A stretch of DNA of 64,000 nucleotides, from IMG/VR virus record IMGVR_UViG_3300019776_000365, positions 26,822-90,821 of that record; one strand, 5' to 3'. Positions 26,926-64,000 of the stretch are shown here, one piece after another. Both the position numbers and the translations under genes were made by a program. Every line of letters begins with the position of its first letter. Positions within the stretch are counted from its first letter, which is position 1. The stretch comes from a virus. The notes under the pieces were generated by a model. It was given only the letters and a program-made list of their open reading frames with translations, ran no database searches and had not been told where the DNA came from.

Positions 26926-27602
26926 TTCTTTTTGTGGTTTAGCTGGCTTTTAGGCTGTTCTTTTTTAACCACATCATCAAGAAGTTCATTTACCAACATA
27001 TTGATAAACTTAACAGCTTCTGACTTTTTAGGCATATATTCAGGATGACCTTGAATACACAAGCAATTTGTTTTATTATAATAAACAATCTCTGGTTCTA
27101 CGAAATTATCCGGCAATTTTTTCTCGTTATCCCATCCATCTAAATATGTTTTAGATAGATTTTTTGAAGATTTTGCAATAATCGTATAGTCAGATGGATT
27201 CATATCAAATGGATACATCATTTGATGATGTGTACTAGTGATATTAAATTTAATATTAGCACCCAACACTTCAATTTCGTGGTCGCCATTGCAATGCCCA
27301 GTAGTGTGTTGCACTAATTTACCCCCAGATTTAGCTGTGCAAAATTGACTTCCACGGCATATTCCAACTATTATTTTCCCCAAATTAACAGCTTTTTCAA
27401 ATTCTTCAATTTCATGAAGATCTCTAGATGTGTTATAATACGTTTGTTTACCTTTTGGTTCGTCATATAATGATGGATGTACATCTTCTCCGCCTGTAAA
27501 TATAACTAAATCAGCCAACTCCATGTCGTCAACCAATTCAAATTTACATGTTAGAAAATTAGCATAATTTGTTGCACCACTTACTACATATACTTTTATC
27601 AT
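26916..27602 (-). CDS. class I glutamine amidotransferase-like (peptidase C26 / PuuD-like)
   Basis: FTGGEDVHP, GICRG.Q, HHQ, QGHPE. Confidence 0.9.
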   Translation of the reverse strand: MIKVYVVSGATNYANFLTCKFELVDDMELADLVIFTGGEDVHPSLYDEPKGKQTYYNTSRDLHEIEEFEKAVNLGKIIVGICRGSQFCTAKSGGKLVQHTTGHCNGDHEIEVLGANIKFNITSTHHQMMYPFDMNPSDYTIIAKSSKNLSKTYLDGWDNEKKLPDNFVEPEIVYYNKTNCLCIQGHPEYMPKKSEAVKFINMLVNELLDDVVKKEQPKSQLNHKKKWK

Positions 27603-36408: not shown

Positions 36409-36942
36409 TCATTTCACAAATTGTTTTAGTTTTTCAACATATTTCTTATCACTTGCATATCTCAATCTGAGTCTTTCATAATATTCTTCATTAGTAAGAT
36501 TCTTATAATGACTCATTTGAAGTAATGCATAATCAATTAACGATTCTCTCCAGTTAGCATAATAGGCATAACCATTTAATACTTGATTAGATGTTGTAGC
36601 TCTTTGACCACAACATTTCATTCCAAACATATTATGATTTGTTTTGAATAGATTGCTTCTTAAGCTATCCGTCTCATGTAACACTTGGCTATATACAATT
36701 TCAGGATGTTCAATCTCTAATTTCAAAATTTCATTATAAATTGAATCATATAAAGATTGTTGTATTACGGTTTGTTGTTTAATTTGTTTTGGTTGTTGTT
36801 TTTCTGTTTTTGTTGTCCAATCGTATTCAACAATAAATGGTACCGAAAAACACCACATTATAAAAATAATCATTAACCAATTCTTTTTAATCCAATTCAT
36901 AAATAAATAATTTAATTTAAAATAAATAAGTGTGTAAATCAA
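36409..36942 (-). CDS. membrane-anchored glucosaminidase-like (GH73) peptidoglycan hydrolase
   Basis: TM segment; Q..HET, NMFGMK, YA.Y..WRES, YA.D..Y; likely start ~36900; TGA stop. Confidence 0.75.
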   Translation of the reverse strand: MIYTLIYFKLNYLFMNWIKKNWLMIIFIMWCFSVPFIVEYDWTTKTEKQQPKQIKQQTVIQQSLYDSIYNEILKLEIEHPEIVYSQVLHETDSLRSNLFKTNHNMFGMKCCGQRATTSNQVLNGYAYYANWRESLIDYALLQMSHYKNLTNEEYYERLRLRYASDKKYVEKLKQFVK

Positions 36943-42037: not shown

Positions 42038-42195
42038 TGTAGATGACAGGATTCGAACCTGTAACTAAGAGTTGCGTGGGCTATACCTTTAAAGAGGTTT
42101 TCAGGATTGACTATTGAGCCAGTACATTCCCGTACTACAACTATTCCCTACTTTTTAATTACTACCGCTGCGTCTACCAATTTCGCCACATCTAC
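42038..42195 (-). ncRNA. tRNA-like RNA with a ~107-nt insert in place of the anticodon/variable arms
   Basis: Acceptor GTAGATG/CATCTAC-A, Leu-type D region TGGCGAAATTGGTAGACGC, T arm ACAGG-TTCGAAT-CCTGT. Confidence 0.7.
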
Positions 42196-44830: not shown

Positions 44831-44901
44831 AGGAGTATCGTTTAACGGTAAGACATCAGACTTCAACTCTGATTTTGTGGGTTCGAAACCTGCTGCTCCT
44901 G
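44831..44901 (+). tRNA. opal suppressor tRNA (anticodon UCA), tRNA-Trp-like body
   Basis: Acceptor AGGAGTA/TGCTCCT, discriminator G, anticodon arm TCAGA-CTTCAAC-TCTGA (TCA at 44863-44865), T loop TTCGAAA; no long Sec-type variable arm. Confidence 0.92.
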
Positions 44902-45337: not shown

Positions 45338-45745
45338 ATGATTATAGCTATAGATTTTGATGGAACATGCGTAACTCATGATTTTCCAAATGTAGGTAAA
45401 GATATAAATGCGGTTCCAGTCTTAAAAAGACTTCAAAATGAGGGGCATTTGTTTGTATTAAATACGATGAGAAGTGGCGAGTATTTGGAATTCGCTGTTA
45501 ATTGGTTTAAAACAAATGGATTAAATCTTTTTGGAATTAATGAAAATCCAACTCAAAGTAAATGGACTTCTTCGCCTAAGGTTTATGCACATATCTATAT
45601 TGATGATGCAGCATTAGGTTGTCCATTAATTTATGATAAACATGATAGACCTTATGTAGATTGGAGTAAAGTAGAAGATTATTTTTTCAATTCAAACTCA
45701 GCAAACTTAACAGCTAATAGTCAATCAATTCACACAAATGATTAA
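45338..45745 (+). CDS. HAD-superfamily phosphatase (BT0820-like)
   Basis: IAIDFDGT, T.R, K.YA..YIDD. Confidence 0.85.
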   Translation: MIIAIDFDGTCVTHDFPNVGKDINAVPVLKRLQNEGHLFVLNTMRSGEYLEFAVNWFKTNGLNLFGINENPTQSKWTSSPKVYAHIYIDDAALGCPLIYDKHDRPYVDWSKVEDYFFNSNSANLTANSQSIHTND

Positions 45746-45944
45746 ACTAGAAATTACTCTATTTGATGATACGCAACTAAATCCCAACATTAGGGTTGTG
45801 AATAACATCATTAGAGCGGTAGGTAAAAACAATGGTTATTGCCCATGTGTAATAGCAGGATTACAAACAGAAGATACTAAGTGCCCATGTAGGGCTTATA
45901 TTCAAAACAGAGATTGTAAGTGTACTTTATATATTAAAAAATAA
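45738..45944 (+). CDS. ferredoxin-thioredoxin reductase catalytic-subunit-like small protein
   Basis: GYCPC, KCPC, CKC.LY. Confidence 0.7.
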   Translation: MIKLEITLFDDTQLNPNIRVVNNIIRAVGKNNGYCPCVIAGLQTEDTKCPCRAYIQNRDCKCTLYIKK

Positions 45945-45948
45945 ACTT

Positions 45949-46161
45949 ATGAAAGAAAAACTTACTAACGTTATAACAACTTACGGTGTTGATAATATTG
46001 ATGCACTACTTGTAAATGATGAGACTTATGGTAAGATTGCTAAAGAGCTTTTTTACTTTAGTAGTGACTATATGAAATCTAGACTGTATTACATGGATAT
46101 TTCTATAGAAAGAGATGATTCAGTGCCAACTGGCGATGTTTATATTAGAGATAAAAACTAA
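45949..46161 (+). CDS. hypothetical protein
   Basis: 70-aa ORF in the operon. Confidence 0.6.
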   Translation: MKEKLTNVITTYGVDNIDALLVNDETYGKIAKELFYFSSDYMKSRLYYMDISIERDDSVPTGDVYIRDKN

Positions 46162-46391
46162 TGAAGTATATATATCACTATTTTAATCAGTTAAACTCTA
46201 ATGATGTGTGGCGTACACAAAAAGGATATGCAGGCTGGTATGATAAATCTGTTATATCTGATAGCGGTACACCTGTAACTCACATGTACTACTGTAGAGA
46301 GGATAATGACGAACCATTAAGAATAACACCATCTATGGAATATAAAGATGAATGGACTTTAGGTGATGATGATATAATTTTTATGTATTAA
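46161..46391 (+). CDS. hypothetical protein
   Basis: 76-aa ORF with TAATG overlap. Confidence 0.6.
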   Translation: MKYIYHYFNQLNSNDVWRTQKGYAGWYDKSVISDSGTPVTHMYYCREDNDEPLRITPSMEYKDEWTLGDDDIIFMY

Positions 46392-46393
46392 TT

Positions 46394-46714
46394 ATGGGTA
46401 TACTAGATAAATATATAGAAGAGTTTAATAGACTTGATAAACCAAAGAATTTTCCATACAAACTAACATGTGATCTATCTACAATAAATAGATTGTGTGG
46501 ATATGGGGTTGAAAAATATATTGTAGAAAAGCATTTAAATATTAATCTTATAAAAGATATATCCGAGAATTTTACTACATATGTAAAACTTTTTACTATA
46601 GTTGATGAAATTTGCACTGATGATGTTGTAAATTATGAGGATGAATTAGACAAAAATCTTATAAAAACATTTGAGAAAATTAAATTTCAGGATACATTGA
46701 GAAATCTATTTTAA
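46394..46714 (+). CDS. hypothetical protein
   Basis: 106-aa ORF. Confidence 0.6.
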   Translation: MGILDKYIEEFNRLDKPKNFPYKLTCDLSTINRLCGYGVEKYIVEKHLNINLIKDISENFTTYVKLFTIVDEICTDDVVNYEDELDKNLIKTFEKIKFQDTLRNLF

Positions 46715-46716
46715 AT

Positions 46717-46923
46717 ATGAACGAAGATTATAATGAAGAAAAAGTAGCATACTGTAAATCATGTTTATCGTTGCGTATAGTCAACTTGGGAGATGACGAT
46801 ATAGTACCATACTACTGTGACGATAAAGGCTGTGGTAGCACTGATATTGGCTACACAGATATACATACATGAGAATTGCTGTATGAAAAAAGATATAACA
46901 AAAAGTATATAACCAAAAAGTAA
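46717..46923 (+). CDS. Zn-ribbon protein (68 aa with TGA=Trp), absent from the ORF track
   Basis: MNEDYNEEKVAYCKSCLSL...YCDDKGCGSTDIGYTDIHT*ELLYEKRY; TGA at 46870; fills the intergenic gap. Confidence 0.8.
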
Positions 46924-46931
46924 ATAACAAA

Positions 46932-47186
46932 ATGGGAGAAGTTAAAGAAAAAAAAGAACTTACTTACGAAGAGCTAAAAACAGTCGCAGATCAATTGCAC
47001 CAACAAAATCAAATGTTGATTAAAGAGGTCAATCAACGTGGCAATGCAGACTTTCATAAACGAGTAGAATATCTATTCAAGGTAATTGAAAATAAATCTG
47101 TATTTAATGAAGGATTTGTTTCTAACTGTGCTAAAGAAATTCAATCTATTATTACAATACCAGAACAAGTAGAAGAACAAAAATAA
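46932..47186 (+). CDS. hypothetical coiled-coil protein
   Basis: LTYEEL...QL.QQN, RVEYLFKVIE. Confidence 0.75.
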   Translation: MGEVKEKKELTYEELKTVADQLHQQNQMLIKEVNQRGNADFHKRVEYLFKVIENKSVFNEGFVSNCAKEIQSIITIPEQVEEQK

Positions 47187-47187
47187 T

Positions 47188-47592
47188 ATGGCGACACCAG
47201 CAATATCAAAAAACTCAAATATTGCAAAAGTCCCAGCTAAGTTAGATATTGATTTTTTCTATAAATGGTTATCATTTTTACAACCATTTCATAAGTTATC
47301 AAATAAAGAAATGGAAGTTCTGTCTGCATTTTTAAAAAAACGACACGAATTGGTTCAGTTAGTTAGAGATGAAAATGTACTTGATAACCTTTTAAAATCA
47401 ATAGATGTTAGAAAAGAAATACGAGAGTCAATTGGTATGAATATATCGCAGTTTAACATATTATGCACTAAACTCAGGAAAACTGGGGCTTTAACTGAGA
47501 ATAAAATAAACAAAAGATACATACCTAATATTGAATTTGACTCAAAAGAGTATAGATTGATTATTATATTTGATTTAAATGACAAAAATTAA
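47188..47592 (+). CDS. hypothetical protein, possibly winged-HTH
   Basis: FF.KWL.FL.PFHKL, KLRK.G, IN.RYIP. Confidence 0.7.
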   Translation: MATPAISKNSNIAKVPAKLDIDFFYKWLSFLQPFHKLSNKEMEVLSAFLKKRHELVQLVRDENVLDNLLKSIDVRKEIRESIGMNISQFNILCTKLRKTGALTENKINKRYIPNIEFDSKEYRLIIIFDLNDKN

Positions 47593-47917
47593 ATCTATAT
47601 ATTTAAATAAAGACTTAATCAAGATGGCTAAGATAACGTCTGAAAAACTAGGTATAGAACTTCACTTAGTTATATTGGCATACAAGTCTTATTTTGATTG
47701 TATAAAAGAAACTTTTGAGAGTATAGATTATAGTAGCATAAAGTCAGAAGATGATTTAAAAACTATAAACTCATCATTTAATGTAAATGGTATTGGAAAA
47801 TTCTATACATCATTTAAAATAATAGATAAGTTAAATAACAGAAAATTTAAAAATGAAGATTCTAAATATAAAGAAAGCAACACCAATGTTTACACGGTTG
47901 ATCACAACCGCAGATAG
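47579..47917 (+). CDS. HU/IHF-like DNA-binding protein
   Basis: N-terminal helices followed by FNVNGIGKFY. Confidence 0.5.
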   Translation: MTKIKSIYLNKDLIKMAKITSEKLGIELHLVILAYKSYFDCIKETFESIDYSSIKSEDDLKTINSSFNVNGIGKFYTSFKIIDKLNNRKFKNEDSKYKESNTNVYTVDHNRR

Positions 47918-48308
47918 ATATACAGAGAAAGAAGCAACACATAATGGTATTATTGACAGCTCAAAGGTAAATGTTATTAAAGATCTGCAAACTATTGTGT
48001 CAGTATCAGAGCAAGCTACTGCTAGGGATTTAAAAGTAGGTGATACAATCTTGCTAGATTTTGGTAGATATGCTCAAATGAAGCAGAAGAAAGACTCATT
48101 GAAGGCTACCACAGATGAATTCTATAATAATGTGGCATCATATAATATTCCAATTATTATGATTAATCTAGAAGAGCATTTATTTGTAGATATTTCAGAC
48201 GTTCAACTAGTGGTAGAAGAGCATGAGTTCATCGATGAGGGTGAAGGCTTTATTACTGGTGGCCCTAAAGATATTATTAATACAGATAAAAAACTAATTT
48301 TACTATAA
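47853..48308 (+). CDS. GroES-like fold protein
   Basis: PMF.RLI.T...Q.IV.V....R.LKVGD pattern. Confidence 0.5.
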   Translation: MKILNIKKATPMFTRLITTADRYTEKEATHNGIIDSSKVNVIKDLQTIVSVSEQATARDLKVGDTILLDFGRYAQMKQKKDSLKATTDEFYNNVASYNIPIIMINLEEHLFVDISDVQLVVEEHEFIDEGEGFITGGPKDIINTDKKLILL

Positions 48309-48309
48309 T

Positions 48310-48597
48310 ATGGATTTTGGAGAAGCAATTAAAGAATTAAAAAGAGGTAATCTAGTTTCAAGAACCGGATGGAATGGTAGTGGAATGTTTATTATGAAAC
48401 AAATCCCAGCAGAGATTGGTTTAGATATCATCCCCAAAATGCAAAGTGTTCAACAGTCTGCAAAAGATGTTTTAATTGATCGAAATACAACTTTAAAATA
48501 CAATAACCAAATGCTGATTATCAAACAAGATGGAACTGCTGATTCATGGGTTCCAAGTTCTAGCGATGTATTTGCAGAAGATTGGATTATACTATAA
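48310..48597 (+). CDS. DUF2829 / Tad2-like anti-defence protein
   Basis: MDFGEAI..LK.G..V.R.GWNG.GMF ... W.PS.SD..AEDW. Confidence 0.8.
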   Translation: MDFGEAIKELKRGNLVSRTGWNGSGMFIMKQIPAEIGLDIIPKMQSVQQSAKDVLIDRNTTLKYNNQMLIIKQDGTADSWVPSSSDVFAEDWIIL

Positions 48598-48622
48598 TAC
48601 CCTAGTGGGTACAATATTAACT

Positions 48623-48648
48623 AAGCCCATGTAATAATGGGCTTTTAT
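48623..48648 (+). terminator. Rho-independent terminator
   Basis: AAGCCCAT/ATGGGCTT stem followed by a T-rich tail. Confidence 0.6.
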
Positions 48649-48659
48649 TGTTTAAATAC

Positions 48660-49199
48660 ATGAGATTATTTGAATATTCAAATTATAAATTAAATATAGC
48701 ACCAGAGGTATATACAGTAAAAGCATTTAAGGATCTTGTTAAACGAGATAGAACTGTAGAAAAAACACAAGCAGAACAAGCGTTTTCTTTCATTTATTTC
48801 GTATATGACCCAAGGAGTGACTTGCAGTATATAACTGATGAAGATGAGCGTATATCAAGAGCAATAGAGCTTTTAGGTATAAATGACAAGTTTAAGGTAG
48901 ATGAAGTTATATCAAAAGCTATAGAGGTGTATAAGAGTCTTACAAAGACAACATCTTCTATGCTACTTGATGACATTAAAATGAGTGTTGACAAGATTAG
49001 GGAATACCTTAGAGATGCCTCTGTTAACGATGACACCTTTGATAGATACACTAGGGCTGTAGAACGATTAATACCACTTACAGAGAAGGTTACTAATGCA
49101 GAGAAAGTTGTAGTTAAAGAAGTAGAAGAACTGTCTAAGATGCGTGGTGATAAGCAACAAACCTTGTTAGACGGAGGTTTTAGTAACTTTATGAAATAA
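48660..49199 (+). CDS. conserved protein upstream of the terminase (candidate small terminase subunit)
   Basis: MRLFEY start; FIYF.YDPRS; TAATG overlap with terL. Confidence 0.65.
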   Translation: MRLFEYSNYKLNIAPEVYTVKAFKDLVKRDRTVEKTQAEQAFSFIYFVYDPRSDLQYITDEDERISRAIELLGINDKFKVDEVISKAIEVYKSLTKTTSSMLLDDIKMSVDKIREYLRDASVNDDTFDRYTRAVERLIPLTEKVTNAEKVVVKEVEELSKMRGDKQQTLLDGGFSNFMK

Positions 49200-58078: not shown

Positions 58079-59476
58079 ATGGCAAGGCAAGAAATATTAA
58101 ACGGACAAACAGGTGCGTCAGTTAGAGATTCATTGAACAGTATGACAGATGAACTATATAGAACTAAAGTAGATGTTGTAGATTTACCAGTATCTAATGA
58201 TATAGTAATACTAAGCGAAAACGGTGGTATAAGTGATTCTGGGAAATCATTTTCCACAGATGGCTCTTTGTCAAATAATAGTGATTTTGAAATTCCAACC
58301 GTAAGGGCTGTAAAAACATATTCAGACACAAAGGTGACTGCAAATTTATCCATTGTTGGAGCAACAAAAACAAAGGTTTCTTATGATTCAAAAGGTCTTA
58401 TCACCAATGGTTCTGATGCAACAACAGCTGATATTGCGGATTCAACTAATAAAAGATATGTGACTGATAACAATTTGGCTGTTATTGTCAACACAAGTGG
58501 CGTAAATTCAGGCGACGAAACAAATAGTTCTATCATTACAAAGATTGGTTATACACCGGTTAATAAAGCTGGAGATACAATGTCAGGTGCTTTGATTGCT
58601 CCATCCATAAATGTGACTGGTCAATCAGTAACACAATCTGCATTTAATATTTTGGCAGGATCTCAAAAATATATACCAACATCTGGTGATTTTGAGAATA
58701 ATGGCAGAGCGTTATTGTATACAAAATCAGGCGCAACGAAAACTACAATCCCAGGAGTGTTGTATACAGCAAATGCAGCACAAGTTATTGCAAACACAAC
58801 TACAGAAACAACATTATTTGCACCTAAAACCGCAACTGGTATTGTAGGAATTTCAAATAGTACAACCGTGACTGGTACTAATACTTTATTTACTACTGAA
58901 TTACAAGTAGGCGCATTAATTAGAGTAGGCACCGAAAGGCGCATAGTTACTTCAATTGTATCAAACACTTCATTGACGGTAGGTACAGCATTTACACAAG
59001 GTTCTTTGTCTGGTCAAACATTGACTTATAAATCAACTGTTATTAGAGCAAATGATTTATACAGTGGTGCTCAGATTAGAATTAAAATGAGCGGTATTGT
59101 TTCAACTGGCTCACCAACGTCATCTGCTACATTATATTTGAAATTAATCAAAGGAGATGGTACTGAAACTGCATTAAACACTGTAAGTGAGGGATTGGCT
59201 AATAACATGACTAATTATTACTTTGATAAAGATATTGTATTAACCTGTAGGACAACTGGAGAAACTGGTACTATAATCCATCAAGGAAGAAGTCAACTGT
59301 GTAAATCAGATGGTGCTAACTTCTCAATGTTACCATTGACCGCAACAACACCAACTACAGTTGATACAACGGTAGATCAATTTGTAGAATTATCGTTCAA
59401 ATGGGCTGCAGCAAATGCGTCAAATACTATTACAGTAAGTAATTCAAGTATTGAAATGATTGGAGGGGTATTGTAA
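58079..59476 (+). CDS. tail fibre-like structural protein
   Basis: I.NG.TGA.VR..LN N-terminus, TK..YDSKGL, GYTPVNKAGDTM, VTGTNT.FTTEL.VG; Thr/Ser-rich. Confidence 0.75.
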   Translation: MARQEILNGQTGASVRDSLNSMTDELYRTKVDVVDLPVSNDIVILSENGGISDSGKSFSTDGSLSNNSDFEIPTVRAVKTYSDTKVTANLSIVGATKTKVSYDSKGLITNGSDATTADIADSTNKRYVTDNNLAVIVNTSGVNSGDETNSSIITKIGYTPVNKAGDTMSGALIAPSINVTGQSVTQSAFNILAGSQKYIPTSGDFENNGRALLYTKSGATKTTIPGVLYTANAAQVIANTTTETTLFAPKTATGIVGISNSTTVTGTNTLFTTELQVGALIRVGTERRIVTSIVSNTSLTVGTAFTQGSLSGQTLTYKSTVIRANDLYSGAQIRIKMSGIVSTGSPTSSATLYLKLIKGDGTETALNTVSEGLANNMTNYYFDKDIVLTCRTTGETGTIIHQGRSQLCKSDGANFSMLPLTATTPTTVDTTVDQFVELSFKWAAANASNTITVSNSSIEMIGGVL

Positions 59477-59490
59477 TAAAAAACATTATT

Positions 59491-60078
59491 ATGACAAAAT
59501 ATTTATATATATCTATTATAGTTGTTATTTGCTTATTGGCTTCAACACTGTTTTATCAGTATGTTAAGATTAAAGACTTAAATGTAAAATATATTACAGA
59601 AGCAAATAACTATAAAGCATCTATTGACAATTCAATAAAACTGAAACTAACAATAGACCAGCTGGAATTACAGAATGATTCTATATCAAAAAAAATAGAT
59701 TCAGTAATTTTATCTAATAAGATTAAATCAAAAACAATATCTAGTGTATCATATATAAAACAAAAAGTATCAAAAAAAGATACATTAATAATAAGTGATA
59801 CTATATTTGTAAAAAATCTAAACCTTGACACAGTTATTGTTGATAAATGGAGTCGTATTAAAATAGTTCTTAAATACCCATCTATAATCGCTTTAGAACA
59901 ACAATTTACCAATGAGCAATACATTGTTTCATCTGTAAAAAAAGAGACCGTAAAACCAAAAAAGATATGACCATTGTGTATATTTCAAAAGAAGCAATTA
60001 ATAGAAAGAGTTTCAATATTCAATTCTAACCCATATGTCACAAATAAAGAGCAAAGATATATAAATATAATTAAATAA
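59491..60078 (+). CDS. membrane-anchored coiled-coil protein, spanin-like candidate (195 aa with TGA=Trp)
   Basis: N-terminal TM segment; TGA 59968 (KPKKI*PLCIFQKK...NPY); stop 60076 abuts the next gene. Confidence 0.65.
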
Positions 60079-60084
60079 AAATAC

Positions 60085-60483
60085 ATGATTACAACAGCGT
60101 TTCTAACACAATTTATTTTACCAGCATTACTTATGATAGCAACATCGTGGGTAACTTGATTTTTTAGCAAAAAAAAAACAAAAGAAGAAGTTGAAGTCCA
60201 AGAGTTAGATACAGAGTCTAAAGAAATAGATAATCTAAAAAAATTGATAGAAACACTTCAGGGGGAAATCACCAGACTAAATGGAGTGCAAACAAATTTA
60301 GTTGAAAGAATAGAAACATTAGAGAAAAAGTTAGAACAAAAAGATATAACTATTGATTCTAAAGATAAACTAATTCAAAGAAAAAAGTTAGTTATATCTC
60401 AATCTTATAAATGTAAATATTCAGAAGAGTGTCCTGTTTTAAAAAAGCATATAGAGCTAGGGGGTAATAATGAGTTATTTTAG
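60085..60483 (+). CDS. holin-like membrane protein (132 aa with TGA=Trp)
   Basis: ATG 60085 is in frame with ORF 60244; TM segment ending SWVT*FFSKKK (TGA 60157), then coiled coil; overlaps the endolysin start. Confidence 0.6.
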
Positions 60484-60865
60484 CATAAAAGAATTAGAGC
60501 ATAGCGATAAAGCAATTAAATTAGGTATAGATAATTCTATACCTAATGAGCTTTTATCAAATGTAAATAAACTGATAAATACTCTTGATATAATAAGAGA
60601 AAAGTATGGTAAGCCAATAACTGTTACATCTGGATATAGATGTAGCAAATTAAATAAAGCTGTTGGTGGTGAAAAGACATCGGCTCATATGATGGCTAAT
60701 GCCGCTGATATAACTTGCGATGACAATAAAAAGTTATACAATACTATAATATTGTTGCGTAAAATTGGCAAGATAAAATACGACCAAAATATAAATGAAA
60801 AGAATTATGCATGAATTCATATTAGCACGGATGGTAGATTTAGATCACAGGATTTTTCTTTATAA
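60470..60865 (+). CDS. endolysin, peptidase M15 family (131 aa with TGA=Trp)
   Basis: YF...EL..S, SGYRC..LN.AVGG...SAH....AAD, then NYA*IHIS (TGA 60812), which restores the W-x-H motif. Confidence 0.9.
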
Positions 60866-60931
60866 CGATAGGTGAAATGATTATTTAGTTATTACGCATA
60901 ACTCAATTGCAATATATCGAAATTAATAAAT

Positions 60932-62207: not shown

Positions 62208-63206
62208 ATGGCAGGACAATTAGGTAAATTTCAAATGTTGGGGTTTCAATCTTGGAAGGGATTGACAAAAAACAACCACATTGGAGCGATTTACAATGCA
62301 CAACCACAGAGAGCTACAAACCTTATGGTTCAATTGCTAGCTACTCATCGTGGTAAAACTCTTGAAGATTATTTAAAACAATTCCCAACTAAATATTTCG
62401 ACACAGATGACGATTATTTTTGGGAGATCATCGGTAGTTCTCGTCGTAACTACCCACTTGTAGAAGCTCGTCACGCAGATGGCTCTGTAGTTGATGGTAA
62501 TGAATTTGCAGGTGTAGCTGGAGCTCCGTTTTACTTGGTATTTTCAGAAGACTGGGTGGCTGACGGAGAAACTATTGTTGGAGAAAAAAATGAAGTATAC
62601 CCTATTAGAAATCTTGGTGAAGCAAGAATGGAGGGTACAAATGCGGTATATAAAGTAGAACTGATGGGTGGAGTACTTGATGGTATTCCAGCAGAAGAAT
62701 TGGCTATGGGTAAACGATTCTCTTGGGAATATGCTCCTGTAGAATCTACTCGCTCTAAAGGCGTTGGTGGTGTTCGTTATACTAGCCCTGTGGCAATGCG
62801 TAATGAGTGGACTACACTTCGTATTATGGAGCGTGTGCCTGGCAATATGCTTAACAAAAAGCTAGCAGTAGGTATACCAGTTATTGATAACGAAGGTAAA
62901 AAACTCGTACATAGTATGTGGATGCACCACGTCGAATTCAAGGTTGAAGAAACCTTCTCAGAATACAAATGCAACGCTATTATGTACGGTAAATCAAACC
63001 GTAACTCTAATGGTGAATACCTAAACTTTGGTAAATCAGGTGAAGTTATTAAGATGGGTGATGGTATTAGAGCTCAAATGGAAGTGGCTAATACAATCTT
63101 CTATAATGATAACACTGATATTTTAAAACTTATTGAAGACGCTTTGTACGAACTGTCTGAAAGCAAACTTGGATTTTCAGATCGTAAGTTTGTGCTTCGT
63201 ACTGGT
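62208..63206 (+). CDS. major capsid protein, exon 1
   Basis: WKGLT..NH.G, R.YPLV, GEKNE.Y, MRNEWTT.R, G.GIR.Q; the coding frame hits TAG soon after FVLRTG, where intron features begin. Confidence 0.85.
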
Positions 63207-64000
63207 GGAGTTCGCCAGGTAGCATAGAAATATGTTATATACAATTGGGAAATATCGGTGAAGGCCACCAATAAAAAGGCTAATACCGAGATGGATTTGA
63301 AAAATATAAAATGAAAAGTCATGAACTTGAAAGAAATTATAAAAACTCAAATTGATGCTGAATCAGCTATAATTGGAACTTTAATCGCAGATGGAAGTAT
63401 ATCATATAGCAGAAGAAACAGCAAAGGTAGTGTTGAAATTACACATACATCAAGAAATTTAGATTACTTAAAATTTAAAAAAGAAATATTTGAAATTATT
63501 GATGGCGTAAAATGTAACATAAAACCTAAAAATAAAATTACAGAAAATAAAACATATGAACTATTTAGATTAACAACAAATAATCACGATTTGTTTTCTA
63601 CATATAGAGATAAAATGTATGTAAAAGAATCTGATAAAAGAAGAAAGTTGTTAATAAAAGATCATTTAGAAAAGATGTCAGACCTTGGTTTATTTTTGTT
63701 GTATTTAGATGATGGCACAATGAGAGTTAGGTATTATGATGGAACTGATAGAATACGAGAAATAAAACTACTATTATGTTTAGATTCATTTAAACTAGAA
63801 GAATTAGTTATGATGAAGAATTGGTTTGTAGAAAGATATAATATACAACCAAACATAAACAAACATGGCAATGGGTATAGACTTGTATTTAGCACTCAAA
63901 AAACAAAAGATTTTTTGAATATAATTTCAAAATATCAAGATTTTGTTCCATCAATGAAATATAAATTTCTTGAATATTATAATCTATCGTAACGCATAGG
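63207..64000 (+). mobile_element. group I intron in the MCP gene (extends beyond the window)
   Basis: P1 CTGGT|GG...TCGCCAG with a U-G pair at the splice site; P/Q-like AATATCGGTGAA...AATACCGAG; contains an endonuclease ORF. Confidence 0.8.
63321..63992 (+). CDS. intron-encoded double-motif LAGLIDADG homing endonuclease
   Basis: AIIGTLIADGS and LFLLYLDDG motifs; PSMKYK near the C-terminus. Confidence 0.88.
   Translation: MNLKEIIKTQIDAESAIIGTLIADGSISYSRRNSKGSVEITHTSRNLDYLKFKKEIFEIIDGVKCNIKPKNKITENKTYELFRLTTNNHDLFSTYRDKMYVKESDKRRKLLIKDHLEKMSDLGLFLLYLDDGTMRVRYYDGTDRIREIKLLLCLDSFKLEELVMMKNWFVERYNIQPNINKHGNGYRLVFSTQKTKDFLNIISKYQDFVPSMKYKFLEYYNLS

Follow-up and report, generated by a model that had tools for sequence, protein, structure and literature searches.

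The subject of this study is the lysis cassette of a crAss-like phage, contained in a 64,000-nucleotide stretch of DNA (hereafter the window) that covers bases 26822 to 90821 of the complete 90,821-bp virus record IMGVR_UViG_3300019776_000365, i.e., two thirds of the phage genome. The cassette consists of three genes on the plus strand, namely ORF1 (59491-60078), ORF2 (60085-60483) and the gene of a predicted endolysin (60470-60865), and each of them carries a single in-frame TGA. Translation table 11 breaks all three at this codon, and with TGA taken as tryptophan each becomes one ORF, lying almost end to end with its neighbour. A sequence-only reading of the window had located these codons at 59968, 60157 and 60812, and all three coordinates proved to be right. 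We found that the three genes are most probably ordinary members of a recoded set of late genes, each having one of its one or two tryptophan (Trp) codons spelled as TGA. Judging from the sequence evidence, the in-frame TGAs are Trp codons that would need a suppressor tRNA supplied by the phage.

All late genes of the whole 90.8-kb genome were called with TGA read as Trp (TGA=Trp), which gave 54 in-frame TGAs, and the usage of TGA in the lysis genes was compared with that in the other late genes. The lysis genes contained 3 TGA and 2 TGG codons (TGA, 60% of Trp codons; 6.6 TGA per 1000 codons), as against 51 TGA and 126 TGG codons in the other late genes (29%; 2.9 TGA per 1000 codons), with p=0.16 in a one-sided Fisher test and p=0.15 in a Poisson test. 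An excess of TGA in the lysis cassette beyond chance was not shown. At least one TGA was also present in 18 of the 38 other late genes, and in 6 of 10 when only genes shorter than 250 amino acids (aa) in the TGA-using part of the genome were counted. The positions of the three TGAs are set by where Trp occurs, because the endolysin has one Trp codon and ORF1 and ORF2 have two each; the location of the endolysin TGA just before the last zinc ligand, to which the sequence-only reading had drawn attention, is that of the one invariant Trp of the family.

Predicted reading of TGA as tryptophan in the late genes

A gene for a putative suppressor tRNA with the anticodon UCA was found on the plus strand at 44831-44901, recognized by ARAGORN, by the Rfam tRNA model (54 bits) and from the sequence itself. 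This tRNA(UCA) has an A1-U72 pair and G73 as the discriminator, which we take to be identity elements as in bacterial tRNA-Trp. An exact 17-nt probe of its anticodon arm found no match in IMG/VR. The gene comes first in a cluster of four tRNAs at 44.8-45.3 kb that heads the rightward block, and it lies 4.3 kb upstream of the first TGA-rich gene of that block (49199). Just 3' of the cluster, about 4 kb of small genes (45338-49199) are nearly free of TGA (a single one, at 46870), and this region could be a standard-code buffer co-transcribed with the suppressor tRNA. On the minus strand, the segment at 42038-42195 gave a full-length match to the Rfam tRNA model (38 bits; 158 nt) and appears to be a tRNA-like gene with an insert of ~85 nt.

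The leftward block of the window (10.6-44.8 kb) holds 62 replication or early genes, and genes for virion, cargo and lysis proteins make up the rightward blocks. Each of the 62 early genes stays open when translation table 11 is applied, and together they have 152 TGG codons and no in-frame TGA. Six of them have apparent TGA stops, including several that overlap the following gene as ATGA and one in a TGA-TAA tandem; because these genes end in TGA, they are direct evidence at the sequence level that termination at TGA persists among the early genes. Early-gene TGA ends in ATGA start/stop overlaps are seen on the minus strand at 27599-27601 and 36409-36411, one of them directly before a TAA. 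Since the early block is open under table 11 and uses TGA as a stop, the late genes switch code within a standard-code setting, and not in an altered-code host.

In ORF1 and in the endolysin, conserved sequence carries on past the TGA. We regard it as extremely improbable that there is no code switch at all, i.e., that the host reads TGA as a sense codon (code 4 or 25) or that the TGAs are real stops that leave functional short products. The low GC content alone would be in keeping with such a reading, and no positive evidence for it turned up. Against it stand the complete avoidance of in-frame TGA by early genes of which six end in TGA, the tRNA(UCA) that the phage brings along, the alignment of the TGA sites to Trp and not to glycine, and the fact that the cultured relatives infect Bacteroides, while the homologue-conserved sequence beyond the TGA in ORF1 and the endolysin argues against real stops. 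Both the host code 4/25 and the real-stop readings were rejected on the grounds of the early-gene TGA stops and of the conservation past TGA together with the Trp alignment.

Lysis proteins and the predicted effect of termination at TGA

Under TGA=Trp, ORF1 encodes 195 aa with a single N-terminal transmembrane (TM) segment, and its TGA (59968-59970) is codon 160; under table 11, a stop at this codon yields a protein of 159 aa. A tblastn search found homologues with 35-40% identity in 47 GenBank phages, annotated as 'lysis regulatory protein'. ORF1 is a homologue of gp27 of crAss001 and stands at its position, with ~45 other GenBank crAss-like phages sharing the family. When 80 related IMG/VR loci were compared, the ORF1 family was present in 54 of them, and in each of these the capsid gene follows a few kb downstream. 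Among 52 distinct homologues found at related crAss-like loci, 39 have F, 11 have W and 2 have P in the column of codon 160; L004 and L005, which are 35-40% identical to ORF1, have TGG there. The 36 residues past the TGA form the most conserved segment of the family and are lost if the TGA terminates. Neither ORF1 nor ORF2 had a meaningful Pfam match.

ORF2 encodes 132 aa under TGA=Trp, with its TGA (60157-60159) at codon 25, and is laid out as an N-terminal TM segment, a KKKTK cluster, a coiled coil and a C-terminal C-x5-CPV motif. The TGA had been placed at the end of the TM helix, and it is indeed the residue that closes the only hydrophobic segment, at the N-terminus, directly before KKKTK; termination there would leave a stub of 24 residues. 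Because a word-index homology search with ORF2 returned the window's own fragment alone, an exhaustive HMMER search was needed, and this gave 25 hits that make up a family of small proteins. The TGA column is W in many of these homologues and in crAss001 gp28, within a T-W-F-F-[SA]-x-K-K motif, and ORF2 aligned to gp28 ('lysis regulatory protein/holin') with an hhalign probability of 97.8% (E 8e-13).

The sequence-only reading had called ORF1 spanin-like and ORF2 holin-like, and neither label was borne out. ORF1 belongs to the gp27 'lysis regulatory protein' family and has no lipoprotein partner: no lipobox ORF of at least 25 aa (ATG start) that could encode an o-spanin was found in any plus-strand frame of 59400-60900, where an embedded Rz1-like gene was sought too. 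The PHROG matches of ORF2 were only weak ones to Rz-like spanin (E about 1e-4), and since the basic cluster KKKTK follows its TM segment, the positive-inside rule suggests a cytoplasmic coiled coil, which argues against the topology of an i-spanin. In the TAG-recoded relative L058, the slot of the gp27-like gene (L058:7942-8334) holds a 130-aa lipoprotein-like ORF with the lipobox LFAGC and with 3 TAG versus 0 CAA/CAG codons, which hints at an outer-membrane (spanin-like) role for this slot. No experimental paper on the lysis proteins of crAss001 was found in the literature, and the GenBank labels 'lysis regulatory protein' and 'holin' for the two families are annotations only. The names 'spanin' and 'holin' are not established for ORF1 and ORF2, and they may perhaps be swapped.

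The third gene encodes a predicted endolysin of 131 aa with the M15/LAS fold of zinc peptidases, in which the TGA (60812-60814, codon 115) is the sole Trp codon. The protein matched Pfam PF08291 Peptidase_M15_3 with 74.9 bits (E 6.5e-21; cut-off, 23.2 bits) and the endolysins of PHROG 894 over residues 2-124 (E 4e-33), and no signal or TM segment was found. A PDB sequence search reached the first two zinc ligands only, and for this reason a fold comparison was needed for the C-terminus. The AlphaFold (AF2) model (pLDDT 93.8) matched chain residues 83-209 of 1LBU over its whole length (residues 1-131) with a Z of 15.1 and an rmsd of 2.0 Å over 115 residues, followed by hedgehog N-domains, ChiX, LysECD7, VanY and other LAS enzymes. 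In an alignment of 22 homologues, residues H73 and D80 (H-x6-D) do not vary; their aligned counterparts in 1LBU are H154 and D161. Conservation in the same homologues reaches 90% or more for W115 and H117, which belong to a W-[VIL]-H-[VI]-S motif, and H117 is located on a strand of the model (115-119). The W-x-H-x-S sequence also aligned to the zinc motif H-V-H-V-S of Desert hedgehog, with H117 as its second His, in a weak match (E 0.49). The zinc ligands are predicted to be H73, D80 and H117, the last being assigned as the third ligand by the fold match to 1LBU; the third ligand of 1LBU itself is presumably His197.

A stop at the TGA of the endolysin removes W-IHISTDGRFRSQDFSL, a stretch of 17 residues that includes His117, as well as the last two strands of the sheet (115-119 and 127-130). 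The claim that termination at 60812 costs the enzyme its third zinc ligand was thus upheld by the match to the 1LBU fold (Z 15.1). The homologues found in a metagenome scan with the endolysin were all at most ~50% identical to it; every one of them encodes the Trp by TGG, and some are TAG-recoded.

Two variants of this type of enzyme were also noticed. The M15 endolysin homologue at L083:10001-11419 (472 aa) is interrupted just behind the His of the first zinc ligand by an intein-like insert of ~340 aa, with the borders …SDH|CFDEKTEILT … GIQGN|CKG…, and its active site would need protein splicing to form. TAG-recoded M15_3 endolysins are present at L087:1150-1542 and also in L086 and L090; the one of L087 has four in-frame TAGs, two of which flank the His of the first zinc ligand (T-S-q-H-C-q-G).

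TGA in the lysis genes: by-product, sorting or timing

None of the 8 Trp codons of the major capsid protein is TGA, and its 396-aa neighbour is without TGA, in contrast to a 1349-aa late protein, taken as low-copy, with 14 TGA and 8 TGG codons. The same contrast was seen in the TAG-recoded relatives, in which the capsid has 0-1 TAG versus about 19 Gln codons and the tail-fibre-like proteins have up to 20 versus 12. Such a pattern would be expected if the codons are sorted by expression and codon quality, in that TGA, as a slow codon that is decoded poorly, builds up under AT mutation pressure in low-copy late proteins (lysis, large tail and cargo proteins) and is purged from abundant ones (capsid and scaffold); a TGA in a lysis gene would then mean that little protein is needed, and not that a lock is in place. 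The GC content of the genome (30.7%) is consistent with this explanation, and low GC has been described as a precursor state by Borges et al. (bioRxiv 10.1101/2021.08.26.457843). On the other hand, the protein abundances on which it draws are inferred from homology only, and it is compatible with an additional effect on timing. We hold the sorting explanation tentatively, as a reasonable possibility.

The sequence-only reading had proposed that leaky early expression gives only inactive products and that the recoding therefore works as a safety lock against premature lysis. The first part is in agreement with our findings in that the truncations remove key parts of the proteins; a device aimed at lysis was not supported, since 18 of the 38 other late genes carry TGA as well. 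The same hypothesis, that recoding blocks the premature expression of lysis proteins, had been put forward by Borges et al. (bioRxiv 10.1101/2021.08.26.457843), who reported significant bias within the lysis cassette, concerning an amidase and a spanin in crAss-like phages recoded at TAG and a TM protein in Agate phages recoded at TGA. According to this hypothesis, selection keeps TGA specifically in the lysis genes, early expression, whether leaky or forced by the host, gives only inactive fragments and the timing of lysis is tied to the build-up of the suppressor tRNA. In its favour, all 3 of the 3 cassette genes carry TGA and each truncation should inactivate its protein, and the tRNA heads a rightward block whose genes up to 49199 are free of TGA except for the small ORF with the codon at 46870.

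The hypothesis is weakened by several observations. The enrichment in this genome falls short of significance (p=0.16), and two of the cassette TGAs sit within the final fifth of their gene, at places dictated by the only Trp codons available. The endolysin has no export signal, and under the lambda paradigm a cytoplasmic endolysin is harmless until the holin fires, so that it should be harmless before the holin acts and a lock would not be needed. In addition, UGA is the leakiest of the stop codons. We consider an adaptive lock on lysis to be unlikely. It seems improbable, too, that a 'triple lock' exists, in which the single TGA of each gene is held by selection and the build-up of tRNA(UCA), and not holin kinetics alone, times lysis.

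Enrichment of the recoded codon in the lysis genes of relatives, which the sequence-only reading had expected, was found in some relatives and not in others. About ten of the 80 related loci are TAG-recoded, one (L005) is TGA-recoded and the remainder use the standard code, including the closest relative, L001 (79% capsid identity). In L005, the lysis cassette was not enriched relative to the other genes (3/8 versus 28/83; p=0.56); its gp27 homologue has no TGA, and the TGA of its endolysin is five codons from the end, past the whole DUF5675 catalytic domain. Among the TAG-recoded loci, the cassette was enriched relative to other genes in L057 (p=0.02) and L073 (p=1e-4) and borderline in L058 (p=0.066), and it was not enriched in L049 (p=0.78) or L011 (p=0.87). 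The absence of enrichment in L005, L049 and L011 and the position of the endolysin TGA in L005 count further against a lock.

Some of the data are less easily reconciled with the view that the cassette genes are ordinary late genes. In nominal terms, TGA is twice as frequent among the Trp codons of the cassette (3 of 5) as in the late genes on average, and the probability that all three lysis genes have at least one TGA was 0.044 when based on length or 0.070 when based on Trp count, for genes that were picked post hoc. The crAss001-like L057 and L073 are enriched for the recoded codon in the set of gp27, gp28 and endolysin, as in the report of Borges et al. (bioRxiv 10.1101/2021.08.26.457843), and they are not independent of each other because they are closely related. 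For a sister phage whose endolysin is 79% identical, only proteins are known; its endolysin call ends at residue 114 and the call of its ORF2 homologue starts at Met55. Solely on the basis of these shortened standard-code calls, which match the sites of truncation, the sister phage seems to have kept the TGAs. The cassette share, the sister phage and the enrichment in L057 and L073 together leave room for selection on the lysis genes. Overall, the data fit a by-product of recoding at least as well as a selected lock on the timing of lysis, and this genome gave no evidence of a lysis-specific device beyond the hypothesis already published.

Genome organization and phage identity

The virus record carries a direct terminal repeat of 99 bp at its ends. 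The gene at 62208 encodes a Crassvirus major capsid protein (Pfam PF23898 Crass_capsid, E=1e-124), and the gene order is that of crAss001 gp25-gp32, i.e., tail fibre, gp27-like, gp28-like, endolysin, gp31-like and capsid. By the capsid and the gene order of Crassvirales, the phage is classified as crAss-like and related to crAss001 (Steigviridae-like); its closest named relatives are the crAss001-like Bacteroides phages of Steigviridae. The type of endolysin is exchangeable in this lineage, with crAss001 and L005 carrying a DUF5675 enzyme.

The major capsid gene (62208-64000) is interrupted after about codon 339 and continues at genome bases 229-744, outside the window, with a second exon on the other side of the terminal repeat of the record. 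The insert holds an ORF for a LAGLIDADG-type homing endonuclease (63258-63992), which itself has a TGA at 63312. No group I intron was found in the window by Rfam at the gathering threshold. The capsid gene of the closest relative, L001, is split too, with a different endonuclease ORF (L001:12032-12574).

Discussion

We propose that the phage spells about 30% of the Trp codons of its late genes (virion, cargo and lysis) as TGA, which would be read by its own tRNA(UCA), and that its early leftward genes remain in the standard code. The cassette would comprise a gp27-like membrane protein, a gp28-like membrane/coiled-coil protein and a cytoplasmic M15 zinc peptidase as the endolysin. Before the suppressor is present, each lysis gene would yield a truncated and very probably inactive product, and full-length functional lysis proteins would be made in quantity only afterwards; if, as we infer, each of the three proteins is cut short and inactive unless the tRNA is there, lysis would depend on the suppressor. 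This dependence may well be a by-product of an AT-driven drift from TGG to TGA, which would be tolerated in low-abundance late proteins once a suppressor exists.

If recoded stops do time lysis, they would act as a translational clock separate from the triggering of the holin, and the recurrence of recoding in phages would be explained. However, the hypothesis has been published before, and this genome is one more, statistically weak, example. The practical value of the finding lies in annotation: gene callers that use the standard code truncate all three lysis proteins (with database calls of 114 and 79 aa) and would thereby miss the complete active site of the endolysin. The phage also offers a compact cassette of three genes with one TGA each and known conserved Trp sites.

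Yutin et al. [quoted passage not shown] The genome studied here resembles those genomes in its mostly late-gene reassignment, its suppressor tRNA and the presence of introns in conserved genes, and nothing essential differs. It shares with the TAG-recoded crAss-like and the TGA-recoded Agate/Jade phages of Borges et al. (bioRxiv 10.1101/2021.08.26.457843) the recoded late structural and lysis genes, the standard-code replication genes and the suppressor tRNA. It differs from them in that TGA=Trp occurs in a crAss001-like lineage, in that the tRNA lies 15 kb from the cassette, whereas theirs is in an adjacent 'code change module', and in that each lysis gene has one recoded codon and a lysis bias is not demonstrable in this genome. 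Compared with crAss001 gp27-gp30 (MH675552), the cassette likewise stands between the tail-fibre genes and the gp31/capsid pair, with ORF1 like gp27 (about 39% identity) and ORF2 like gp28 (hhalign 97.8%). However, crAss001 uses the standard code, has the head-fibre gene gp29 inside its cassette and carries a DUF5675-type endolysin (gp30), whereas the enzyme of this phage is of the Peptidase_M15_3 type. This enzyme has the fold (Z 15.1) of the zinc D-Ala-D-Ala carboxypeptidase of Streptomyces albus G (1LBU), with a zinc site formed by H-x6-D and a C-terminal His, and it also resembles the M15/LAS phage endolysins LysECD7 (8Q2G, Z 8.3), ChiX (5OPZ, Z 8.0) and that of T5 (2MXZ, Z 5.3). Unlike 1LBU, it is a single domain of 131 aa that has no N-terminal peptidoglycan-binding domain.

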